Source: Patescibacteria group bacterium (GTDB lineage Bacteria; Patescibacteriota; 4484-211). Taken from it: a stretch of DNA of 51,842 nucleotides. Below, piece after piece: positions 3,362 through 49,172 of the stretch (positions are counted from its first letter, which is position 1; the number at the start of each line of letters is the position of its first letter). Under the pieces are notes generated by a model that ran no database searches, had not been told where the DNA came from, and worked only from the letters and a program-made list of their open reading frames with translations. The position numbers and the translations under genes were made by a program. Location: contig JAHISN010000078.1 of the NCBI GenBank assembly GCA_018818265.1, positions 1 through 51,842 on the forward strand, given 5' to 3'.

Positions 3362-3512
3362 TTGTAGCGGCGGCGCTTCCACGCGATGCCGCATGGCGTC
3401 GTAGCGCCGCGCCACGTCTGACGTGGCCGCGCCAGAAAGGGCCGCCTTCTTCGGATGCTAGGCTTCAGCCAGAGGCTGATCCGCCTTTGGCGGAAAAGCC
3501 TAGCCGCTACAA
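3362..3512. repeat. GC-rich composite REP-like element bounded by TTGTAGCGGC / GCCGCTACAA
   Basis: Left part is GTAG plus the imperfect palindrome GCGGCGCTTCCACGCGATGC-C-GCATGGCGTCGTAGCGCCGC. Middle part is GCCACGT-CTG-ACGTGGC. Right 56 nt (3457-3512) are identical to 46074-46129. Confidence 0.85.
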
Positions 3513-3673: not shown

Positions 3674-3763
3674 GGAGGGGTGCCGGAGTGGTTTAACGGG
3701 CTGCTCTCGAAAAGCATGCGCCTCGCAAGGGGCACGAGAGTTCAAATCTCTCCCCCTCCGCCA
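3674..3763 (+). tRNA. tRNA-Ser (anticodon CGA), CCA encoded
   Basis: Acceptor stem GGAGGGG/CCCCTCC, anticodon loop CTCGAAA, long variable arm, T-arm GAGAG-TTCAAAT-CTCTC, discriminator G plus CCA. The backbone resembles what I recall of E. coli tRNA-Ser(CGA) (from memory, no alignment run). Confidence 0.85.
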
Positions 3764-3804: not shown

Positions 3805-4070
3805 AGTTGCCTCTGGCCACGTTAGTCCCGAGCTTTGCGAGGGATTTTACCGTGGCCACCGCGTGTCAGACGTGGCTCCGCAAATTTAAACGCGATTTTG
3901 TCGCATTAAGCTGAGCCGCGCGAAACTCTCATCGCGATGAGCCGCGTTTAAATCCGTTGCACGGATTTATCACGCGGCCATAACTAGACCGTGGCCACCC
4001 TGCCACGCTATACACTACGCAATGCTGCATAGCGTTGGCATTGCGTAGCGCATGGCATCGTATTTTGCGA
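3805..4070. repeat. Cluster of GC-rich palindromes and REP-like fragments
   Basis: ACCGTGGCCACC occurs twice. ATTTAAACGCG...CGCGTTTAAAT is an 11-bp inverted repeat. AAATCCGT-TGC-ACGGATTT is a hairpin. CTACGCAATGC-12 nt-GCATTGCGTAG lies at 4015-4048. No credible ORF. Confidence 0.7.
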
Positions 4071-6024: not shown

Positions 6025-6885
6025 ATGACAAATATTAAAGGTGTAATTTTAGACGTAGATGGAGTTATAGTTGGCGAAAAAATCGGCATTAATTCGCCTA
6101 ATCCCCATCCATCTGTTATAAAAAGACTTAAAGAATTGCACAAAAATGGCATAGGAATAAGTTTATGCACAGGAAAGCCTCACTTTGCAATTAGGCAAAT
6201 CATTAGTAACGCTCAGCTCAATAATTTACATATCACCGACGGTGGCGGAGTAATCATTAATCCAATTAATAATGTCATTATTAAAAAACATACAATAACC
6301 AGCGAGCTAGCTAGGCACGTCTTAAAGAAATACTTGGACAATAATGTTTATGTAGAATTTTATACCCCTAAGGGCTATTTTATTCAAAAAGATAAGGTAT
6401 CAAAAATTACAGAGGGCCACACACACGTCTTGCAACAAGAGCCAATTTTACTCGATAACCTGCCTAAAGATTCAGTTCCGCACGAGATTACAAAAATAAT
6501 GCCTATTGCCGAAAACGAAACAGATAAAGAGCGGGTCGCTAGCTTGTTCCAAGATTTTCGGGATAGATTAACACTAAGTTGGGGAGTTCATCCAGTTATA
6601 TTGCCTCTACAGTTTGGAATTATTACCGCGCCGGGGATATCCAAAAAGCAGGGCGCTATTAACATATCAGAAGCCTCTAAAATCTCTTTTGAGAATATGT
6701 TAGGAATTGGCGACAGCAAGAGTGACTGGCAGTTTATAGAATTATGTAAATATGCAGCCGCAATGGGTAATGCCAGTCTAGAACTTAAAGACCTTGTTTT
6801 AACAAAAGGCAAAGATTGTTCTTTTATCGGCCCATCAGTTGATGAACACGGAGTCTTGAAAATTCTGGACCATTTTTTGGGCTGA
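6025..6885 (+). CDS. HAD-superfamily hydrolase, Cof-like (subfamily IIB)
   Basis: Motif I ILDVDGV, a cap-domain-sized insert, and motif IV GIGDSKSDWQF. Confidence 0.75.
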   Translation: MTNIKGVILDVDGVIVGEKIGINSPNPHPSVIKRLKELHKNGIGISLCTGKPHFAIRQIISNAQLNNLHITDGGGVIINPINNVIIKKHTITSELARHVLKKYLDNNVYVEFYTPKGYFIQKDKVSKITEGHTHVLQQEPILLDNLPKDSVPHEITKIMPIAENETDKERVASLFQDFRDRLTLSWGVHPVILPLQFGIITAPGISKKQGAINISEASKISFENMLGIGDSKSDWQFIELCKYAAAMGNASLELKDLVLTKGKDCSFIGPSVDEHGVLKILDHFLG

Positions 6886-6927
6886 TTGATATCGAGTTAC
6901 CGCAAAACAAATTTACATAGTCCCTTG

Positions 6928-7032
6928 TTGTAGCGGTTGAAGAACACGATCCTTTCTAACGCGGCGCTGCGACGCCATGCGCTACGCAATGCTGCATAGC
7001 GTTGGCATCGCGTGGAAGCGCCGCCGCTACAA
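6928..7032. repeat. GC-rich composite REP-like element bounded by TTGTAGCGGT / GCCGCTACAA
   Basis: The right part is the reverse complement of the 3362-3415 palindrome and carries an extra 23-nt segment. A fragment of it recurs at 14307-14337. Confidence 0.8.
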
Positions 7033-7043
7033 GTATTCATAAA

Positions 7044-7066
7044 GCAGAATAAATTCTGCTATTACA
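7044..7066 (-). repeat. REP-like 23-nt hairpin (stem GCAGAAT)
   Basis: GCAGAAT-AA-ATTCTGC followed by TATTACA. Confidence 0.85.
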
Positions 7067-7099: not shown

Positions 7100-7339
7100 A
7101 TGAAATCTTTAATTCTCACCCTCATCCGTTTTCATCAACGACACTTATCTTCTTCCGCTCACTGGTTAGCTCGAAGTGTTGGCCTTAGTGAAGTAGGATG
7201 TCGGTTTACGCCGCGATGTTCCGAATATACCTATCAGGCCATAGAAAAATATGGCCTGATAAAGGGCGGCTGGCTGAGTTTTAAGCGTATCATCCGCTGC
7301 CATCCCTTTAGTCGCGGCGGCTATGACCCAGTCACGTAA
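7100..7339 (+). CDS. yidD: Membrane protein insertion efficiency factor YidD
   Basis: [45 protein letters not shown]. Confidence 0.9.
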
Positions 7340-7386: not shown

Positions 7387-7409
7387 TGTAGTAGCAGAAT
7401 TTATTCTGC
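7387..7409 (+). repeat. REP-like 23-nt hairpin (stem GCAGAAT)
   Basis: TGTAGTA followed by GCAGAAT-TT-ATTCTGC. Confidence 0.85.
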
Positions 7410-7436
7410 GTATATTAAGGGTTAATTGTTTGAATC

Positions 7437-7459
7437 GCGAAATGAATTTCGCTACTACA
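7437..7459 (-). repeat. REP-like 23-nt hairpin (stem GCGAAAT)
   Basis: GCGAAAT-GA-ATTTCGC followed by TACTACA. Confidence 0.85.
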
Positions 7460-14301: not shown

Positions 14302-14306
14302 TAGCT

Positions 14307-14337
14307 ATGCGCTACGCAATGCTGACATCGCGTGGAA
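14307..14337. repeat. Fragment of the GC-rich REP-like palindrome in the rpsC-rplP spacer
   Basis: ATGCGCTACGCAATGCTG plus CATCGCGTGGAA match 6977-7017 apart from an internal deletion. Confidence 0.8.
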
Positions 14338-15337: not shown

Positions 15338-15483
15338 AAGTTAAAAGTGAAAAGTTGCTGAAGTTTACCAGAGTTTAGAAGTTGTCTAATCCGTGGTTGC
15401 AAACACCCATTAAGCACCATGAGGGTTTCTTTGAATATAACATTTCTAACTTTTAACTTTTCATTTTTAACTTTTAACTTGAA
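15337..15483 (+). repeat. Long imperfect hairpin built of AAGTTAAAAGT words (rpsQ-rplN spacer)
   Basis: Left arm GAAGTTAAAAGTGAAAAGTTG. Right arm CTAACTTTTAACTTTTCATTTTTAACTTTTAACTTG, ending 2 nt before ATG 15484. Confidence 0.8.
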
Positions 15484-15860: not shown

Positions 15861-15941
15861 CTAGCCTTTTAGCTTCGCTAGCTTATTAGGAATACCTAGT
15901 GAAGCTAGTAAGTTAATGAAGCTAATGAAGCTAATGAAGCT
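15861..15941 (+). repeat. AGCT-word hairpin (rplN-rplX spacer)
   Basis: Left arm CTAGCCTTTTAGCTTCGCTAGCTTATTAGG. Right arm CCTAGTGAAGCTAGTAAGTTAATGAAGCTAATGAAGCTAATGAAGCT, running into ATG 15942. Confidence 0.85.
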
Positions 15942-16265
15942 ATGACAACAAACAAACTCGGAATCAAAAAGGGCGATAAAGTTCAAGTTATTACCGGGAA
16001 CTACCGCGGCAAACAAGGAGTTGTAGAGCGCGCACTGCCGAAAGAGAGGAAGGTTGTTGTTTCGGGCATTAACATCGTTAAGAGACATATGAAACCGCGC
16101 GGACAGCAAAAACCCGGTGGCATTATTGAAATAACCAAGCCCATTGATGTATCCAAGGTTATGTTCGTTTGTCCGAGTTGCAGCCAAAAAACACGAATCG
16201 GATACGACGCGAAAGGAAAAGAAAAGCATCGTATTTGCAAGAAATGCGGCAAGACAATTAGCTAA
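15942..16265 (+). CDS. rplX: 50S ribosomal protein L24 (with C-terminal CxxC...CxxC)
   Basis: KKGDKVQVITGNYRGKQGVV (KOW) and CPSC...CKKC. Confidence 0.93.
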   Translation: MTTNKLGIKKGDKVQVITGNYRGKQGVVERALPKERKVVVSGINIVKRHMKPRGQQKPGGIIEITKPIDVSKVMFVCPSCSQKTRIGYDAKGKEKHRICKKCGKTIS

Positions 16266-16355
16266 TTAGCTTATAGCTTGATTAGCTTTTTAGATGTACC
16301 CATCAGTCTAACTAAACTAATAAGCTAATGAAGCTAGTAAGCTAACGAAGCTAAC
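16262..16355 (+). repeat. AGCT-word hairpin (rplX-rplE spacer)
   Basis: Left arm CTAATTAGCTTATAGCTTGATTAGCTTTTTAG. Right arm ACTAATAAGCTAATGAAGCTAGTAAGCTAACGAAGCTAAC. Confidence 0.85.
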
Positions 16356-17513: not shown

Positions 17514-17648
17514 AAGAAGTTAAAAGTCAAAAGTCGTAGTTCAAAATTGAAAACTACCACAGGGTTTTCTAGTCCTGGGTTATTCTTACTAATTTTGAAT
17601 TTTGCATTTCAACTTTGCACTTTGCATTTTTAACTTTGAATTTGAAAT
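17514..17648 (+). repeat. Long imperfect hairpin of AAGTTAAAAGT / TTGAATTTTGCA words (rpsH-rplF spacer)
   Basis: Left arm 17514-17557 includes the GTAG-headed hairpin GTAGTT-10 nt-AACTAC at 17536-17557. Right arm 17589-17648 ends at ATG 17649. Confidence 0.8.
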
Positions 17649-19211: not shown

Positions 19212-19263
19212 AGGTAATTAGGTCCAGCTGAACTGGACCGGTAATTTTCAACTTTTAATTTTT
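19212..19263 (+). repeat. GGTAATT-flanked 7-bp hairpin plus AACTTTTAA words (rpsE-rplO spacer)
   Basis: GGTAATTA [GGTCCAG-CTGAA-CTGGACC, 19221-19239] GGTAATTT, then TTCAACTTTTAATTTTTAAC. Confidence 0.75.
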
Positions 19264-19308
19264 AACTTTTTCCGCCAGAGGCGGATCAGCCCTTGGCTGA
19301 AACTTGAA
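19264..19308 (+). repeat. 45-nt double-hairpin module identical to 2827-2871
   Basis: AACTTTTTCCGCCAGAGGCGGATCAGCCCTTGGCTGAAACTTGAA, ending 2 nt before the rplO ATG. Confidence 0.9.
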
Positions 19309-19310
19309 AC

Positions 19311-19760
19311 ATGCGCCTACATAATTTACCAAAAATCACCCAACGGAAAAAGAAACTTCTTGGGCGTGGGCCGGGAAGCGGCAAAGGAAAAACATCCGGA
19401 CGAGGCATGAAAGGGCAAAAAGCCCGATATAAAGTCCGTCCCGGCTTTGAAGGCCGCCAGCCCAGATTGACCAAGCGATTACCTAAACTAAGAGGGAAAG
19501 GGAGATTGTTGCCGCACAAGCCCAAACCAAAGACAATTGATATTGCGCGCCTCAACATATTCCGCGCCGGTTCACGGGTAACACCGGAAATACTGGTAGA
19601 AAAAGGCCTAGTTAAAAAAATCCCCCCTGCCGGCATTAAAATACTTGCCAAGGGCAAACTTGAAAAAAAACTAACCTTGGAAGGCTTTAAGATCTCTAAG
19701 GGCGCGAGAGAGCAGGTGGAAGAGTTGGGAGGGAAAATAAAGGAAATCTCAAGCGACTAA
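19311..19760 (+). CDS. rplO: 50S ribosomal protein L15
   Basis: MRLHNLPKI...GRGPGSGKGKTSGRGMKGQKAR. Confidence 0.95.
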   Translation: MRLHNLPKITQRKKKLLGRGPGSGKGKTSGRGMKGQKARYKVRPGFEGRQPRLTKRLPKLRGKGRLLPHKPKPKTIDIARLNIFRAGSRVTPEILVEKGLVKKIPPAGIKILAKGKLEKKLTLEGFKISKGAREQVEELGGKIKEISSD

Positions 19761-25756: not shown

Positions 25757-26416
25757 TCAGTACTCTCTAGTGGAAATAACATTGCGGAGGGAAACAGAGG
25801 ACTTGTATTCCTGACGATTGGGAGCATCCAAACCCTGCTCTAAAGTTATCTCAATTATTACCTGGTCGGGACGCAATGCTCCCCCATCAGTTACTACAAA
25901 ATTTAATGAAGCTATATTAATACCGGTAACGCGGTCGTCGCTTGTTATAACTCCCGCCCCCACAGCGCTATCCTCACAGTCGGAAAGGGATTTAAGAAGT
26001 CGTCCGTTAAAATCATCGGTTGGTCCGGGAGTTTCCAATTGAAGTATTACTGTTTCGCATCTTCCGTTTTGCTTATATTCTAACGAATCAAGGTCCAAGG
26101 TTGCTGTTAACGAACCCCCGCCGCCAGTCAGGTTACCGGCCCCCTGTACAATTCTGGTAACTTCTTCCATTATTCTGGAGCCTTCTTTACGTAAGTTGTT
26201 ACTGATTACTGCCTTAGCATACAACTGAGTCACAAACAGCAGGATTGTTATTCCCACCCCCGCTACCACTGCCAGTACTCCCAGCGATATGAGTACCTCA
26301 ATGAGGGTATAGCCGGAGGGAAACCGATTATCGCCCCTTGAGCTAAGTTTCGCCCGTCTCGTTTTGTTAAACCAACCTCTCTTACTATTTAATTTCGTAC
26401 TTTTAATTTTAAACAT
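25757..26416 (-). CDS. Type IV pilin-like protein (prepilin-type N-terminal cleavage/methylation domain)
   Basis: Class III signal G|YTLIEVLISLGVLAVVAGV after an unusually long basic leader of about 35 aa. Confidence 0.8.
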   Translation of the reverse strand: MFKIKSTKLNSKRGWFNKTRRAKLSSRGDNRFPSGYTLIEVLISLGVLAVVAGVGITILLFVTQLYAKAVISNNLRKEGSRIMEEVTRIVQGAGNLTGGGGSLTATLDLDSLEYKQNGRCETVILQLETPGPTDDFNGRLLKSLSDCEDSAVGAGVITSDDRVTGINIASLNFVVTDGGALRPDQVIIEITLEQGLDAPNRQEYKSSVSLRNVISTREY

Positions 26417-26544
26417 AGCTGTACCTTGTATTCATTCTACACTGCCAGAACATTAAGTCAATTAATAGAACTTGTTTGCACCCGCTCTTGGAGAGATAGG
26501 CGGGTATTCGGCAGGCGAGGCTGGTTGCGCACTTTGACTCAAAT

Positions 26545-26564
26545 TGTAGTAGCGCAATCTTGCC
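26545..26564 (+). repeat. REP-like variant TGTAGTAGCGCAATCTTGCC
   Basis: Identical 20-mer at 31981-32000. Confidence 0.8.
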
Positions 26565-26631
26565 GTGTGCCTGAAAGGGTGATACCCTGCGTGGTTCATC
26601 CTCACGTGATACTGCGGTCATTGCGACAAAT

Positions 26632-26654
26632 TGTAGTAGCGCAATTTATTGCGC
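26632..26654 (+). repeat. REP-like 23-nt hairpin (stem GCGCAAT)
   Basis: TGTAGTA followed by GCGCAAT-TT-ATTGCGC. Confidence 0.85.
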
Positions 26655-26676
26655 GCAGAATGAATTCTGCTATTAC
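26655..26676 (-). repeat. REP-like hairpin (stem GCAGAAT), abutting the previous copy
   Basis: GCAGAAT-GA-ATTCTGC followed by TATTAC. Confidence 0.85.
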
Positions 26677-27046
26677 GGGTAGAAATCGTAATTATACCCC
26701 GCTTCAATCAATTAATTCGTTTGTAAATAGAATACGCCCCCATTTAATTGAGTGAAGCTGACACAGCGCTATCAAACCACATAATGTCTTTTCGTATCAC
26801 CAAGCCCAAGCCTAGTGGTTATTAACTTTACTTTCGCCCCATAGTGGGCTATAATGAGTGTATGAGGTGTTAAAAGCACCTCAAATGGCACCTTATATTG
26901 TAAATCAAAAAAAGGCGTCCTTGCGATGTAAATGAGGCTAATATACTCCTTTATGTTGCTGGGCCGCTTTTCGCACCATTGTGGGCGAGATCCTATTAAT
27001 GGATTCTAAGCGGCTGCGCTTTTCACATAAAATGGGAGGTTTTAAA

Positions 27047-27427
27047 ATGAAGCATTTTTCTCAGCTTTGGTCAGGTTTAGCGATCATTGTCATGGTGGCG
27101 GCGATTGCCTTGGTCGGTGGAGAACCCGCCGAAAGTCCGGAAGGGTTCACGCGCTGGCCCCCCGCGTACGAGGAGGGGGGAACTATCAATGTGTCGCCGC
27201 CTTGGACCGCCCGCTGGCACACGGGCCTGAACGTCGCCGGCGAGGTGCCAGTAGTCGTCTTCTACGAGGACGGCAGTGGAAATCACGTCACTGCTGACTA
27301 TGACTACGTCGGCAAAGGTGAGTACCAGATCGAACTCACCGATGCCACCCTAGTTTTCCGGGTCTTCCCGTATGAGGGCCCAGGTGGAGTGAAGTTTGAC
27401 CTCTACTACCGTGTAGAGACCAAGTAG
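27047..27427 (+). CDS. Hypothetical small secreted or anchored protein (very high-GC gene)
   Basis: GGGAGG SD 7 nt upstream of ATG 27047. Signal/anchor MKHFSQLWSGLAIIVMVAAIALVGG. A sampled 60-nt stretch is 72% GC. Confidence 0.6.
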   Translation: MKHFSQLWSGLAIIVMVAAIALVGGEPAESPEGFTRWPPAYEEGGTINVSPPWTARWHTGLNVAGEVPVVVFYEDGSGNHVTADYDYVGKGEYQIELTDATLVFRVFPYEGPGGVKFDLYYRVETK

Positions 27428-27438
27428 CAGCAAAAGGA

Positions 27439-27517
27439 AGGGCGGGATGCGTCTCTAATTCAGTTGCCTAACTAGCAATGAGTTATGAGGCGCAATATCC
27501 CGCCCTCTTCTTTTTTG
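27439..27517 (+). terminator. Rho-independent terminator with a long interrupted stem
   Basis: AGGGCGGGAT...ATCCCGCCCT, with inner GCGTCTC/GAGGCGC pairing, followed by CTTCTTTTTT. Confidence 0.6.
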
Positions 27518-27563
27518 CACACATTTTTTCAAGAATCCAAAATTGGAAATCACTGGACACTGC

Positions 27564-27586
27564 GCGAAATTAATTTCGCTATTACA
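27564..27586 (-). repeat. REP-like 23-nt hairpin (stem GCGAAAT)
   Basis: GCGAAAT-TA-ATTTCGC followed by TATTACA. Confidence 0.85.
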
Positions 27587-27593
27587 ATTAGCC

Positions 27594-27616
27594 TGTAATA
27601 GCAGAATTCATTCTGC
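27594..27616 (+). repeat. REP-like 23-nt hairpin (stem GCAGAAT)
   Basis: TGTAATA followed by GCAGAAT-TC-ATTCTGC. Confidence 0.85.
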
Positions 27617-27690
27617 GCATATCTACCTCTGGAAACGGCGGTCCCACAACATATTGCCATGGCATGCTTTAGGGTCGCGCTTGCATGTAA

Positions 27691-31980: not shown

Positions 31981-32000
31981 TGTAGTAGCGCAATCTTGCC
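31981..32000 (+). repeat. REP-like variant TGTAGTAGCGCAATCTTGCC
   Basis: Identical to 26545-26564. It lies in the clpC upstream region. Confidence 0.8.
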
Positions 32001-34277: not shown

Positions 34278-34520
34278 TTACAATCCAATTAACTTCAATA
34301 ACTCTTCCATCCTTCCCTGACTAAGGCCGACACAATAGACATAAAGGCTAAAGATAGCGGTTAACCAAAAAAGGGTAAAATGGGGGAGCCATTTTCGAAA
34401 CCATTGCCGAAACCATTGCCGAAACCATTGCCGAAACCATTGCCGAAACCATTGCCGAAACCATTGCCGAAACCATTGCCGAAACCATTGCTCCCGCAAT
34501 TTGGGTTTAACTGATTCCAT
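34278..34520 (-). CDS. Small membrane-anchored protein with a (QWFR)8 repeat
   Basis: MESVKPKLRE-(QWFR)x8-KWLPHFTLFWLTAIFSLYVYCVGL. Lies 72 nt upstream of, and co-oriented with, the GT-C-like gene. Confidence 0.5.
   Translation of the reverse strand: MESVKPKLREQWFRQWFRQWFRQWFRQWFRQWFRQWFRQWFRKWLPHFTLFWLTAIFSLYVYCVGLSQGRMEELLKLIGL
34396..34491. repeat. Perfect tandem repeat, 12 nt x 8 (CGAAACCATTGC)
   Basis: Eight identical units counted directly. They are in frame within ORF 34278-34520. Confidence 0.95.
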
Positions 34521-40759: not shown

Positions 40760-40846
40760 TAGCTTTTTAGCTTTTAGATTCATTAGCTTGTTAGATTAAG
40801 AAAAAAAACTAAGAAGCTAGTGAAGCTAACGAAGCTATCAGCTAAT
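40760..40846 (+). repeat. AGCT-word hairpin (rpmJ-rpsM spacer)
   Basis: Left arm TAGCTTTTTAGCTTTTAGATTCATTAGCTTGTTAG. Right arm CTAAGAAGCTAGTGAAGCTAACGAAGCTATCAGCTAA. Confidence 0.85.
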
Positions 40847-41254: not shown

Positions 41255-41356
41255 TTTATAGCTTATAGCTGCATTAGCTTATTAGGTCAGAAACAGAAAA
41301 CCAAGAGACTAATCAGCTAGTGAAGCTAACGCAGCTAGCGAAGCTAGCTGGCTAAT
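41255..41356 (+). repeat. AGCT-word hairpin (rpsM-rpsK spacer)
   Basis: Left arm TTTATAGCTTATAGCTGCATTAGCTTATTAGG. Right arm CTAATCAGCTAGTGAAGCTAACGCAGCTAGCGAAGCTAGCTGGCTAA. The 17-mer AGCTAGTGAAGCTAACG is shared with 40815-40831. Confidence 0.85.
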
Positions 41357-41763: not shown

Positions 41764-41869
41764 CAGCTTCGCTAGCTTATAGCTTCGTTAGCTTGTTACG
41801 CATAAGAGGAAAACTAACAAGCTAGTGAGACTGATAAAGCTAATGAAGCTAACGAACCTAGCAAGCTAA
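41764..41869 (+). repeat. AGCT-word hairpin (rpsK-rpsD spacer)
   Basis: Left arm CAGCTTCGCTAGCTTATAGCTTCGTTAGCTTGTTA. Right arm CTAACAAGCTAGTGAGACTGATAAAGCTAATGAAGCTAACGAACCTAGCAAGCTAA. Confidence 0.85.
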
Positions 41870-46021: not shown

Positions 46022-46129
46022 TTGTAGCGGCGGGTCTTTAGACCCGCGTCAGGAGAGATTACGTCCTTCTGTCGCTAGGCTTCAGCCAGAGGCTGATCCG
46101 CCTTTGGCGGAAAAGCCTAGCCGCTACAA
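46022..46129. repeat. Composite REP-like element bounded by TTGTAGCGGC / GCCGCTACAA
   Basis: Left part is GTAG plus GCGGGTC-TTTA-GACCCGC. The right 56 nt are identical to 3457-3512. The outer flanks CAAAACAAACTTAC (about 45972) and CATGTAAATTTGTTTTG (46139-46155) are also inverted. Confidence 0.85.
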
Positions 46130-46162
46130 CAAGAAACCATGTAAATTTGTTTTGAATCTTGG

Positions 46163-47384: not shown

Positions 47385-48785
47385 ATGAGCCAGTCATCTC
47401 CCAGCTCCTTTCCAAAATCTCCGCAAGAAACCAAGCAAATCTGGCAAAGTGTTCTAGGCCAAATCGAATTGAAACATTCGGCATCAATTGTTAATACATG
47501 GTTCAACAATACCCATTTGGAAAGTATCAACAAAAGCTCCGCAGTTATTTCCTGTCAATCACCATATACTCAAGATGTACTTCAAAAACGCTACAATAAA
47601 ACAATTGTTGAGTGTCTGGAAAAATCAACTCAGAAAAAGCTAGATTTAGAGTTTATTATTCAAAAAACTAAAGAAGGCCCGGATTCTGGCCCCTTATTTG
47701 ATCAGACTCCAGAAGAAGCAACCATTGGCGATAATTTCAAAACCCACGAAGAACACCAACACAATGTTAATCCGCGGTTTACCTTTGAAAATTTTGTCGT
47801 TGGTAATTGCAACCGCGTCGCCCACGCCGCCGCCTTAGCTGTTACCTCCGACCCGGGCACTGCTTACAATCCCTTATTCATTCACGGTGGATCAGGAATG
47901 GGAAAGTCCCATCTGTTGCACGCCATTGGCAACCATCTCCTTCAAAACCCAAAATGTGACCATCTATTGTGCTTCCCTGTAGAAACATTTATTAACGATT
48001 TTATAGACTCAATCCGCTATAAAAAAACTAAAGAATTTAAAAAGAAATACCGCCAATCCGACGGCCTGCTTATTGATGACATTCAGTTCATTGGCGGCAA
48101 CAAGATTTCCACTCAAGAAGAATTTTTTCATACTTTTAACGAACTCTATAGCGGCAATCGACAAATCATTATTTGTTCCGATCGGCCACCGGAAGAAATT
48201 GATCAATTAACTAAAAGACTTGTGACACGTTTTGCCGGGGGACTAATGGTAGAAATTAGCCCTCCCGACTTTGAAACCCGCCTGGCAATCATCCAAACCA
48301 AAGCCGCCGTGCTAGGAATGGATTTTAATACGGAAAGCGCCGAATTCGTAGCCCAATGCACCGAATCTAGTATACGAGAAATTGAGGGGATTCTTTTAAA
48401 AATTCGCAGCGAAACACTAGTCCGTGAACTCACTCCTACTTTGGGAGTTATTAAAAGCATCTTGATTGACAACAATTCAACAAAGAAAAATAAACAGACA
48501 ATGACTCCTGAATTAATTTTTAGATTAGTTAACGAGAGATTCGGCACCACCATGTCACAGCTGTGCGGACGGCGTCGCAAATCCGAAATTGTTATCCCGC
48601 GACAAATCGCCATGTATTTACTTCGCAACGACTTGGGTCTAAACCTGGAACATATCGGAGACCTGCTAGGAGGAAGAGACCATACCACAGTAATGCACGG
48701 CACCGACAAAATCAGTAGTTTATTAAAAAAGAAGAAACCTCTTATCTGCGAGGCAGTAAGATATATAAGACAGGAGATTTATTAG
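47385..48785 (+). CDS. dnaA: Chromosomal replication initiator protein DnaA
   Basis: FENFVVGNCNRVAHAAA, GGSGMGKSHLLHAIGN, LIDDIQF, C-terminal HTH GGRDHTTVMHG. Confidence 0.96.
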   Translation: MSQSSPSSFPKSPQETKQIWQSVLGQIELKHSASIVNTWFNNTHLESINKSSAVISCQSPYTQDVLQKRYNKTIVECLEKSTQKKLDLEFIIQKTKEGPDSGPLFDQTPEEATIGDNFKTHEEHQHNVNPRFTFENFVVGNCNRVAHAAALAVTSDPGTAYNPLFIHGGSGMGKSHLLHAIGNHLLQNPKCDHLLCFPVETFINDFIDSIRYKKTKEFKKKYRQSDGLLIDDIQFIGGNKISTQEEFFHTFNELYSGNRQIIICSDRPPEEIDQLTKRLVTRFAGGLMVEISPPDFETRLAIIQTKAAVLGMDFNTESAEFVAQCTESSIREIEGILLKIRSETLVRELTPTLGVIKSILIDNNSTKKNKQTMTPELIFRLVNERFGTTMSQLCGRRRKSEIVIPRQIAMYLLRNDLGLNLEHIGDLLGGRDHTTVMHGTDKISSLLKKKKPLICEAVRYIRQEIY

Positions 48786-48856
48786 CTTCATTAGCTTCAC
48801 TAGCTTCATTAGCTTCACTAGCTTCATTAGCTTCATTAGCTTTTTAGCTTGTTAGA
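48784..48856 (+). repeat. Tandem 9-mers AGCTTCAYT (about 6 to 8 units), left-arm-only AGCT-word element after dnaA
   Basis: AGCTTCATT AGCTTCACT AGCTTCATT AGCTTCACT AGCTTCATT AGCTTCATT AGCTTTTT AGCTTGTT. No complementary arm lies nearby. Confidence 0.85.
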
Positions 48857-48869
48857 GATTAGCAAAACA

Positions 48870-48892
48870 TGTAGTAGCGTAATTTATTACGC
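48870..48892 (+). repeat. REP-like 23-nt hairpin (stem GCGTAAT)
   Basis: TGTAGTA followed by GCGTAAT-TT-ATTACGC. Confidence 0.85.
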
Positions 48893-49051
48893 GCTTCTCG
48901 CCCACAACTTGTGCATAACTGTGCCCCTCGCGTTGATAACTTGTGAACAAGTCGCCGCCTTTGTGGGCAATTTGCATGGCGCAAATTTTCCTCTCCACTT
49001 TCTATCCACTCTTCATCCCACCATTTTTAGCTCACTTTATAAGCAACAGAT

Positions 49052-49077
49052 AATAAAAAAGCCTCCGTTAGGAGGCT
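49052..49077 (-). terminator. Rho-independent terminator of the AAA+ ATPase gene
   Basis: AGCCTCC-GTT(A)-GGAGGCT, followed on the minus strand by TTTTTTATTAT. Confidence 0.7.
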
Positions 49078-49172
49078 GACAAAATCCACAATCGCAACTA
49101 TTGAATATGCCCGTTATCACAACTAATTAACCTACCATCTACATATCCACGAGGATTACTATTATTACTAAT

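Follow-up and report, generated by a model that had tools for sequence, protein, structure and literature searches.

The question raised by this locus is what kind of element is represented by the small hairpins that recur between the genes of contig JAHISN010000078.1, a stretch of 51,842 nt (hereafter, the window, which denotes the whole of this stretch) from a host labelled Patescibacteria by NCBI. The hairpins are very probably repetitive extragenic palindromic (REP) elements of a Patescibacteria chromosome, with a cognate REP-associated tyrosine transposase (RAYT) encoded in the same genome. The kind of system is already known; what is new here is its occurrence in a Patescibacteria genome.

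The window was searched with an exact pattern, TGTARTAGCNNAATNNATTNNGC (TGTARTA+GCNNAAT+NN+ATTNNGC), in which the NN positions were left free. Seven matches were returned versus none in 100 dinucleotide-preserving shuffles, and nine versus 0.37 when up to three mismatches were allowed, an excess over chance that agrees with the view taken in the initial annotation. That annotation described eight full copies of a single architecture. Seven fit exactly, and the eighth, at 26655–26677 on the minus strand, departs by one mismatch in the head, a C for the first T (CGTA rather than TGTA). Its description of the family as GTAG-headed likewise holds for four of the eight copies, the other four carrying GTAA; in every copy the head is followed by TA and then the stem. 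The four stem versions that it listed (GCAGAAT, GCGAAAT, GCGCAAT and GCGTAAT) are each matched by the exact complement in the opposite arm, and the chance that the free positions would be complementary in all seven exact matches is approximately (1/16)^7. Folded as single-stranded DNA, the units yield energies of −4.9 to −6.7 kcal/mol (z −2.6 to −5.0); as the innermost T–A pair cannot close over a 2-nt loop, the folded stem has 6 bp and its loop 4 nt. No match to Rfam at the gathering threshold was returned across the whole window, and a tRNA scan of the window identified only a tRNA-Ser at 3674–3763.

Every window copy is placed between called genes, and the coordinates and pair orientations first reported were reproduced. 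Single REPs are found at 7044–7066 (minus strand; TGTAATA followed by GCAGAAT-TT-ATTCTGC), between a HAD hydrolase gene (6025–6885) and yidD (7100–7339), and at 48870–48892 (plus strand; stem GCGTAAT), 85 nt 3′ of the dnaA stop codon and beside a 9-nt tandem array and a probable origin region. The remainder form three inverted doublets. Heads point outward in the doublet between the convergent yidD and recJ genes, composed of 7387–7409 (plus strand; stem GCAGAAT) and 7437–7459 (minus strand; stem GCGAAAT) separated by a 27-nt spacer, and in the doublet composed of 26632–26654 (plus strand; stem GCGCAAT) and 26655–26677 (minus strand; stem GCAGAAT, head CGTAATA), which has no spacer. Heads point inward in the third, where 27564–27586 (minus strand; stem GCGAAAT) and 27594–27616 (plus strand; stem GCAGAAT) are 7 nt apart. 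A 41-aa open reading frame (ORF) in the ENA annotation (48852–48977, minus strand) overlaps the 48870 copy and is probably a spurious call. The ORF at 26426–26755 (plus strand) runs through REPs, with two heads translated as QIVVAQ and one REP as VVAQFIARRMNSAIT; this ORF, with its REPs read as VVAQFIA, is spurious, and REPs thus yield false small proteins in annotations of metagenome-assembled genomes (MAGs) of the candidate phyla radiation (CPR).

A metagenome scan, with a pattern that covered RR/YY stem variants only, returned 105 loci (numbered with the prefix L below), many of them from the Hainich groundwater 0.1-µm fraction and from metagenome Ga0180007. Ten of the Ga0180007 loci (L134, L146, L161, L168, L180, L189, L201, L206, L210 and L225) were placed in the MAG of the window, whose locus tags carry the prefix KKB83_ (the first window ORF is KKB83_05155, and the window DnaA is MBU1111032.1). 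This placement was based on exact protein look-ups, MBU1110xxx accessions and KKB83 locus tags, with L168 and L180 assigned via contigs shared with L189 and L206. The MAG JAHJGY01 (L015, L034 and L054) was ruled out as the genome of the window, since its proteins have other accessions and its genes other locus tags; it is a separate MAG of the same metagenome. The resulting same-MAG sample amounts to 142 kb and is biased, as the extra loci were fetched through REP matches.

The head GTARTAGC occurs 51 times in this 142-kb sample. A perfect stem of 7 bp with a 2-nt loop comes after 33 of the heads, a stem with a single mismatch after one, and sequence with three to seven mismatches after 17, giving a clean bimodal distribution. 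Eight stem versions are present. Covariation was evaluated with 25 distinct 24-mers that were picked irrespective of the five inner stem pairs (175 stem cells). Standard pairs account for 99.4% of the cells, changes on both sides are seen at three of the seven stem pairs, and double-change cells number 25 versus 6.3 ± 1.9 in shuffles, the observed value being reached by none of 500. Sliding the partner by one to three columns lowers the proportion of paired cells to 23–47%. The stems therefore remain complementary when same-MAG copies are added to those on which complementarity was first noted. G–T pairs are absent from the 175 cells, and this lack of wobble pairs points to a constraint acting on DNA rather than on RNA. 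The intergenic position also holds in the larger sample: 32 of the 34 copies lie outside ORFs of at least 100 aa, though approximately 75% of the bases are under ORFs of at least 120 aa in some frame.

A candidate for the cognate enzyme is encoded on another contig of the MAG. The gene at L189:5560–6471, which adjoins KKB83_04795 and KKB83_04800, encodes MBU1110907.1, a protein of 303 aa annotated only as 'transposase'. The protein contains the motifs NHYHLL and YVHQNPVKHGY. Its bit scores are 91.8 for NF047646, the model named 'REP-associated tyrosine transposase' (cut-off 80), 32.8 for PF01797 and 17.6 for the IS200 model NF033573 (cut-off 55). Its sole meaningful sequence match in the PDB is E. 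coli TnpA-REP (PDB code: 4ER8; E = 2e-7), in an alignment that covers both motifs. Residues H63-Y64-H65 and Y250 (the latter in LNYxHxNPxKH) are aligned to the 4ER8 motifs and are invariant in two homologue alignments. The AlphaFold model (pLDDT 82.8, pTM 0.74) has 4er8_A as its best Foldseek match in the PDB, with a probability of 1.00 and a target-normalised TM of 0.70, and structures of the IS608 and ISDra2 transposases occupy ranks 2–28. As judged from sequence and predicted fold, MBU1110907.1 is the putative RAYT cognate to the window REP family. The intact RAYT of the PF01797 type that the initial annotation anticipated is thus found, flanked by REPs, in what is by MAG binning the same genome.

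The gene is closely bracketed by REPs. A doublet of GCGCAAT and GCGGACT units lies upstream (L189 5458–5508; 5458 on the plus strand, 5487 on the minus strand) and occurs again downstream (L189 6493–6543; 6493 on the plus strand, 6522 on the minus strand), and these two are the only identical doublets that were encountered. A GCAGAAT REP covers the end of the gene (L189 6463–6484, minus strand), with the stop codon within its loop, and a further REP is located downstream (L189 6630–6651, minus strand). Flanking by inverted REPs is the defining criterion for RAYT genes given in Nunvar 2010 (PMC2817692), and the gene with its bracketing REPs matches the 'REPtron' layout that defines RAYTs (PMC2817692, Nunvar 2010; PMC6006769, Quentin 2018). 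A single RAYT copy was detected in the MAG, which is incomplete. Among 5.8 billion sequences, no other protein comes closer to it than 55% identity, which would fit a single copy. TnpA-REP of E. coli (YafM, PDB code: 4ER8) is a RAYT of the kind reportedly treated in the studies of Nunvar in 2010, Ton-Hoang in 2012 and Messing in 2012. MBU1110907.1 resembles it in the HUH and catalytic tyrosine motifs, the YxHxNPVKHG helix and the REP-flanked gene, and differs from it in length (303 versus 165 aa) and in an insertion of 100–130 residues.

Homologues of MBU1110907.1 form a small clade of approximately 50 clusters among the 5.8 billion proteins. The members with a named organism are all CPR (Patescibacteria group, Parcubacteria and Gottesmanbacteria), and Blackburnbacteria were added by exact look-up. 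In every member examined (L223 from Hainich Patescibacteria, L229 from Blackburnbacteria, L232 from Gottesmanbacteria, and L234, L236 and L237), the gene is flanked by REPs with GTA(G/A)TA, a 7-bp stem and a TY loop. A sister clade of RAYTs is approximately 33% identical to the CPR enzyme, and nearly the same REP flanks it in Poribacteria (L016) and Victivallis (L001). In a scan of a genome collection, TGTAGTAGCGCAATT(C/T)ATTGCGC was found many times in Poribacteria chromosomes among the matches listed, and these also include Lentisphaerae, Verrucomicrobia, Acidobacteriota, CPR3, Saccharibacteria and Patescibacteria MAGs; some of the phylum labels of the MAG contigs may be binning errors. The NN positions are complementary in 103 of the 123 matches listed, one of which is the ENA contig of the window itself (L116). 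By estimate, chance would yield approximately 140 matches to 17 specified bases in 596 Gb, and because only 1/16 of these would be complementary, single non-complementary matches are regarded as noise and the rest as members of the family. A near-identical REP from CPR to Poribacteria and the PVC (Planctomycetes–Verrucomicrobia–Chlamydiae) group, at approximately 33% RAYT identity, would reflect either an old and tightly constrained recognition code or transfer across phyla. The sharing of the same 22-nt REP by RAYT clades that are approximately one-third identical, in different phyla, also offers a handle on the bases that the enzyme reads. Window-type REPs, including the zero-spacer doublet known from the window, are carried as well by L005 and L078 (CAYIUF01, labelled Gammaproteobacteria) and by L204 (labelled Nanoarchaeota). 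These contigs match contigs of the Hainich 0.1-µm fraction at approximately 100% identity; their phylum labels seem doubtful and may be binning or classification errors.

The most unusual feature of the system lies outside the window, within the coding sequence of the CPR RAYT genes. The gene at L189:5560–6471 and those of L223, L229, L232, L234, L236 and L237 hold in-frame REP copies between the HUH strand and the tyrosine helix, in a cluster of three (minus, plus and minus strand), and much of the insertion of 100–130 residues at this position, roughly residues 112–222 of MBU1110907.1, is encoded by them. Translation of the in-frame REPs gives three peptide blocks, RELKFAxT, VLAQFIAR and YRGLKSAIT, kept in approximately 35 homologues of 45–63% identity, and the frame is open across approximately 250 nt of REP-derived sequence. 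The VLAQFIAR–YRGLKSAIT part is modelled by AlphaFold as confident helices (pLDDT ~93), and residues 140–159 form a low-confidence stretch of the insertion. The in-frame REPs could possibly represent an exapted module, a means of self-regulation or a permissive loop. It is conceivable, if on balance doubtful, that this clade has turned copies of its own REPs into protein, taken jointly with the persistence of REP–RAYT in epibiont genomes of ~1 Mb and with an old recognition code or transfer. If the in-frame REPs are selected rather than tolerated, they could constitute a new coupling of a domesticated transposase and its repeats; the options would then include self-regulation by binding of the enzyme to hairpins in its own gene or mRNA, or an added DNA-binding module.

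The window family has the same build as the REPs of Pseudomonas, which read GTAG-GA-GCGAGC-TT-GCTCGC. Closer comparison can be made with the GTAG-1 and GTAG-2 repeats, in which two unpaired bases connect the tag to stems of 6–9 bp, loops are often TY, sub-families differ by complementary changes in the stem, and dimers have their tags outside or inside (PMC3733652). The window family shares with them (PMC3733652) a GTAG-type tag, two unpaired bases, a perfect stem (of 7 bp) around a TY loop of 2 nt, a conserved base just beyond the hairpin, complementary sub-families, an occurrence as singles and dimers, and extragenic sites. It differs from them in that its stem (GCxxAAT) is rich in AT where theirs is rich in GC, about half of the copies have A as the fourth base of the head, dozens of copies are present rather than hundreds, and the host is a Patescibacteria with a genome of ~1 Mb. 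Inverted doublets are common, further ones being found at L054, L073, L112, L189, L201, L206 and L225. REPINs are said to have been defined by Bertels and Rainey in 2011. Unlike those, the doublet partners never share a stem (GCGCAAT, for example, is paired with GCAGAAT), and the spacers in the window are of 0, 7 and 27 nt; a doublet is therefore not a symmetric long hairpin. The alternating unlike units resemble the Y and Z units of E. coli BIMEs more than the REPINs of Pseudomonas. Of the REP/REPIN population initially suggested, the REP part is upheld by architecture, covariation and the RAYT, and the REPIN part is not, given the unlike partner stems and variable spacers.

Not all heads in the MAG belong to hairpins with a 2-nt loop. 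Some of those that lack it are long-loop copies, in which the head and a closing stem surround a nested GC-rich hairpin (L161 7480–7575, minus strand; L146 1622–1717; L189 5922–6018, minus strand). In the window, the 20-mer TGTAGTAGCGCAATCTTGCC was confirmed by search to be duplicated exactly at 26545 and 31981, as had been noted in the initial annotation. The first occurrence opens a segment at 26545–26627 (plus strand) that reads best as a long-loop REP copy, with the head TGTAGTA, the 5′ arm GCGCAAT, a nested module of approximately 60 nt that starts with CTTGCCGTGTGCC and ends with TACTGCGGTC, and a 3′ arm, ATTGCG(A)C, with a one-base bulge. Folding of this segment alone gives no significance (z = −0.78), so the long-loop reading rests on its homologue in the same MAG, L161 7480–7575 (minus strand), in which the 3′ arm is exact. 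The second occurrence, at 31981–32000 (plus strand), is a truncated copy of this sub-type, comprising the head, the 5′ arm GCGCAAT and CTTGCC, and has no 3′ arm downstream.

GC-rich (57–66%) multi-hairpin elements of 105–150 nt are also present in the window, at 3362–3511, 6927–7033 and 46022–46131. They are closed by TTGTAGCGG...CCGCTACAA and fold as single-stranded DNA with energies of −32 to −52 kcal/mol (z = −4.3 to −7.4). At their left end these elements have a REP built like those described above (GTAG-CG-GCGGGTCT-TT-AGACCCGC-G), and their inner hairpins reappear as separate modules and within long-loop REPs. Related hairpin modules occur in the window at 2776–2877, 19257–19314, 4000–4046 and 14304–14324, and copies of the GC-rich elements that are 88–100% identical lie on other contigs of the MAG (L189 334–522 and L206 2555–2661).

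The unit is approximately 24 nt in length and comprises a T, GTA(G/A), an unpaired TA, a 7-bp stem of the form GCxxAxT with its complementary arm, a loop of TT or TC between the arms, and a final G. If the hairpins are REPs served by this RAYT, its substrate would be single-stranded DNA that carries TGTAGTAGCGCAATTTATTGCGCG. E. coli TnpA-REP, for which cutting and rejoining have reportedly been shown, and IS200/IS605 TnpA serve as models for the likely mechanism. The enzyme would bind the hairpin in its folded state on single-stranded DNA, probably at the replication fork, with recognition of both the GTAG tag and the stem foot. It would then cut by means of its tyrosine and rejoin the DNA elsewhere, so that single REPs and inverted doublets would be spread. 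The stem sub-families would be maintained because recognition and copying are confined to those copies that are still able to fold. We infer REP binding and cleavage by the RAYT, as well as present-day mobility, from these analogues. The likeness to IS200/IS605 TnpA includes the HUH-Y1 fold, and in that known system a hairpin with an adjacent tetranucleotide is recognised on single-stranded DNA. Unlike in IS200/IS605, the transposase gene seemingly does not move with the repeats, which are 23-nt units far from the gene.

Several observations weigh against this reading. Half of the window copies have GTAA and thereby depart from the canonical GT(A/G)G head, and the doublets, with their different partner stems, are not symmetric REPINs. 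The population is of modest size, with at least 34 copies in the biased 142-kb sample and a total that is probably in the dozens rather than the hundreds (>100 in classic cases). The RAYT lies outside the window and its link to the window rests on MAG binning (a common locus-tag prefix and accession block), and the activity of the enzyme is not certain in view of approximately 100 extra residues that are derived from REPs. The presence/absence polymorphism of individual copies envisaged in the initial annotation was not found: the window sequence is also contained in ENA assembly ERZ27247128 and Logan SRR6514274, and wherever a REP site is covered by two of the three assemblies (NCBI, ENA and Logan), their sequences agree exactly, the sole difference found among them being the copy number of a 12-nt tandem array. 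Such a lack of polymorphism would suit a fossil REP population that is no longer mobilised, in which the RAYT was crippled by REP-derived insertions or the REPs came with horizontally acquired DNA, as would the long RAYT insertion with its low-confidence residues 140–159 and the decayed copies at 31981–32000 and 26545–26627 (the latter with its bulged arm). Nevertheless, we consider a fossil population improbable. Perfect stems in 33 of 34 hairpin copies are unlikely for old neutral sequence, and eight stem sub-families are maintained in one genome of ~1 Mb. The REP-derived part of the RAYT gene, approximately 250 nt, leaves the frame open, the greater part of the insertion is conserved in 35 homologues and predicted as confident helices, and the HUH and tyrosine residues are invariant.

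The positions of certain copies at gene ends, such as 7387–7459 between the convergent yidD and recJ and 48870 just after dnaA, could instead suggest host RNA elements (terminators, stabilisers of mRNA 3′ ends or processing sites) that are kept by selection on transcripts, the transposase being incidental. E. coli REPs do stabilise mRNA and terminate transcription (PMC3733652, PMC6006769), which would favour such a role. As the principal explanation for the family this is very improbable. In an intrinsic-terminator test, none of the eight window hairpins was found to be followed by a run of four or more T on either strand, and none of the 175 stem cells is a G–T pair. Moreover, a terminator would have no use for the conserved one-sided head TGTARTA, a divergent promoter region (26632–26677) is also occupied by copies, and at least nine loci from several phyla have RAYT genes with this sequence at their flanks. 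A secondary RNA role of the hairpins is possible. The core of the unit is also a 16-bp palindrome in intergenic DNA, and the motif could be a site recognised in duplex DNA, either the operator of a dimeric regulator or an uptake sequence (TGTAGTAGC) for the CPR competence machinery. CPR possess type IV pilus and competence genes, a pilin-like gene is found at 25757–26416 in the window, and the uptake sequences of Neisseria often occur in inverted pairs. This explanation is nonetheless extremely unlikely, since a single sequence-reading protein does not require three stem positions to change on both arms, and the one-sided conserved head implies strand-specific recognition. Uptake sequences are common within genes, in contrast to the 32 of 34 copies that lie outside ORFs, and in Poribacteria and Victivallis the RAYT genes are bordered by near-identical sequence.

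A REP population with its own RAYT, as we favour, would extend the range of such systems. Most descriptions of REP–RAYT so far concern Proteobacteria, the other cases being scattered over Cyanobacteria, Chloroflexi and the PVC group, and it has been discussed as long-lived and vertically inherited in large free-living genomes. Those four groups are the ones with GTAG repeats according to Di Nocera 2013, in which CPR are not listed (PMC3733652). In line with the remark in the initial annotation that its author was not aware of a description in CPR-like genomes, a full-text search of the literature library returned no paper linking REP, REPIN or RAYT with CPR or Patescibacteria, and none with the sequence itself. 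The occurrence in Patescibacteria of a complete system, with covarying sub-families, long-loop derivatives and a REP-flanked RAYT, would indicate that extreme genome reduction does not purge REPs. With approximately 1,000 genes and a host-dependent lifestyle, the organism also offers a compact natural system for the effects of REPs on their host. On a practical level, REPs interrupt the assembly of short reads and give rise to small false ORFs in CPR MAGs.

Two further genes in the window were considered as transposase candidates and rejected. The ORF at 26981–27427, between the REP clusters, has no Pfam or NCBIfam match and encodes a small signal-peptide-like protein with a GC content of 58%. 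In this region, 27-nt inverted arms of REPs (26653–26679 with the 27594 copy; 96% complementary) bracket a 912-nt segment (window 26653–27618), whose sole gene (27047–27427, 126 aa) has no family match and a GC content of 58% versus 43% for the window. The segment could be a REP-bounded acquired cassette; its gene was found in this same context only. The Y1_Tnp gene at 1–466 matches PF01797 and was rejected as the cognate RAYT, being a broken member of a different RayT/COG1943 family with its own palindrome; its score on NF047646 is 47.9 bits, short of the cut-off of 80. It lacks approximately 38 residues relative to full-length relatives and is frameshifted, with the N-terminus in frame 1 (..KYRMSSARLKNWNYANNGYYFTTICVQNR) and the rest in frame 2, and is therefore a pseudogene; a copy that is 89% identical and shares its 139-aa form is present on another contig of the same sample (L119). 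The full-length relatives are flanked by a different palindrome, GTAGAGACGCAA-NNNN-TTGCGTCTCTAC. One window copy of it, GTAGAGACGCAAAATCTTGCGTCTCTAC, lies at 194–221 inside the pseudogene, where it encodes VETQNLASL, a block conserved in the family, and the same palindrome flanks full-length homologues (L120–L126). This gene would thus represent a second RayT family with its own REP-like repeat, which is also found in its coding sequence.

The remainder of the window carries the S10/spc/alpha ribosomal protein operons, secY, infB, clpB, recJ and dnaA in addition to the pilin-like gene, and the L30 gene is absent from the S5–L15 interval. The array in which the assemblies differ is a perfect, intergenic tandem repeat of 12 nt (CGAAACCATTGC, eight copies) at 34396–34491; the ENA contig is 60 nt shorter here, or approximately three units, and the copy number therefore either varies or was collapsed by assembly. 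The 9-mer GAAGCTAAT is repeated in AT-rich arrays, with a complementary block of TAGCTTnTAGCTT ahead of them, at 15863–15942, 16267–16354, 40768–40846, 41259–41346, 41773–41860 and 48775–48851. They are intergenic and stand just upstream of several ribosomal protein genes and, in reversed orientation, just after dnaA; the arrays and their complementary block could form long hairpins. Short arrays of AACTTTT-like 7-mers occur between ribosomal protein genes at 15441–15480, 17590–17644 and 19242–19270. Downstream of dnaA, directly after the 48870 REP, motifs resembling DnaA boxes (TATCCAC, AATCCACA and ATATCCAC) are found at 48893–49170. The cumulative GC skew reaches its minimum towards this end of the window, and the 48893–49170 region is a probable replication origin.

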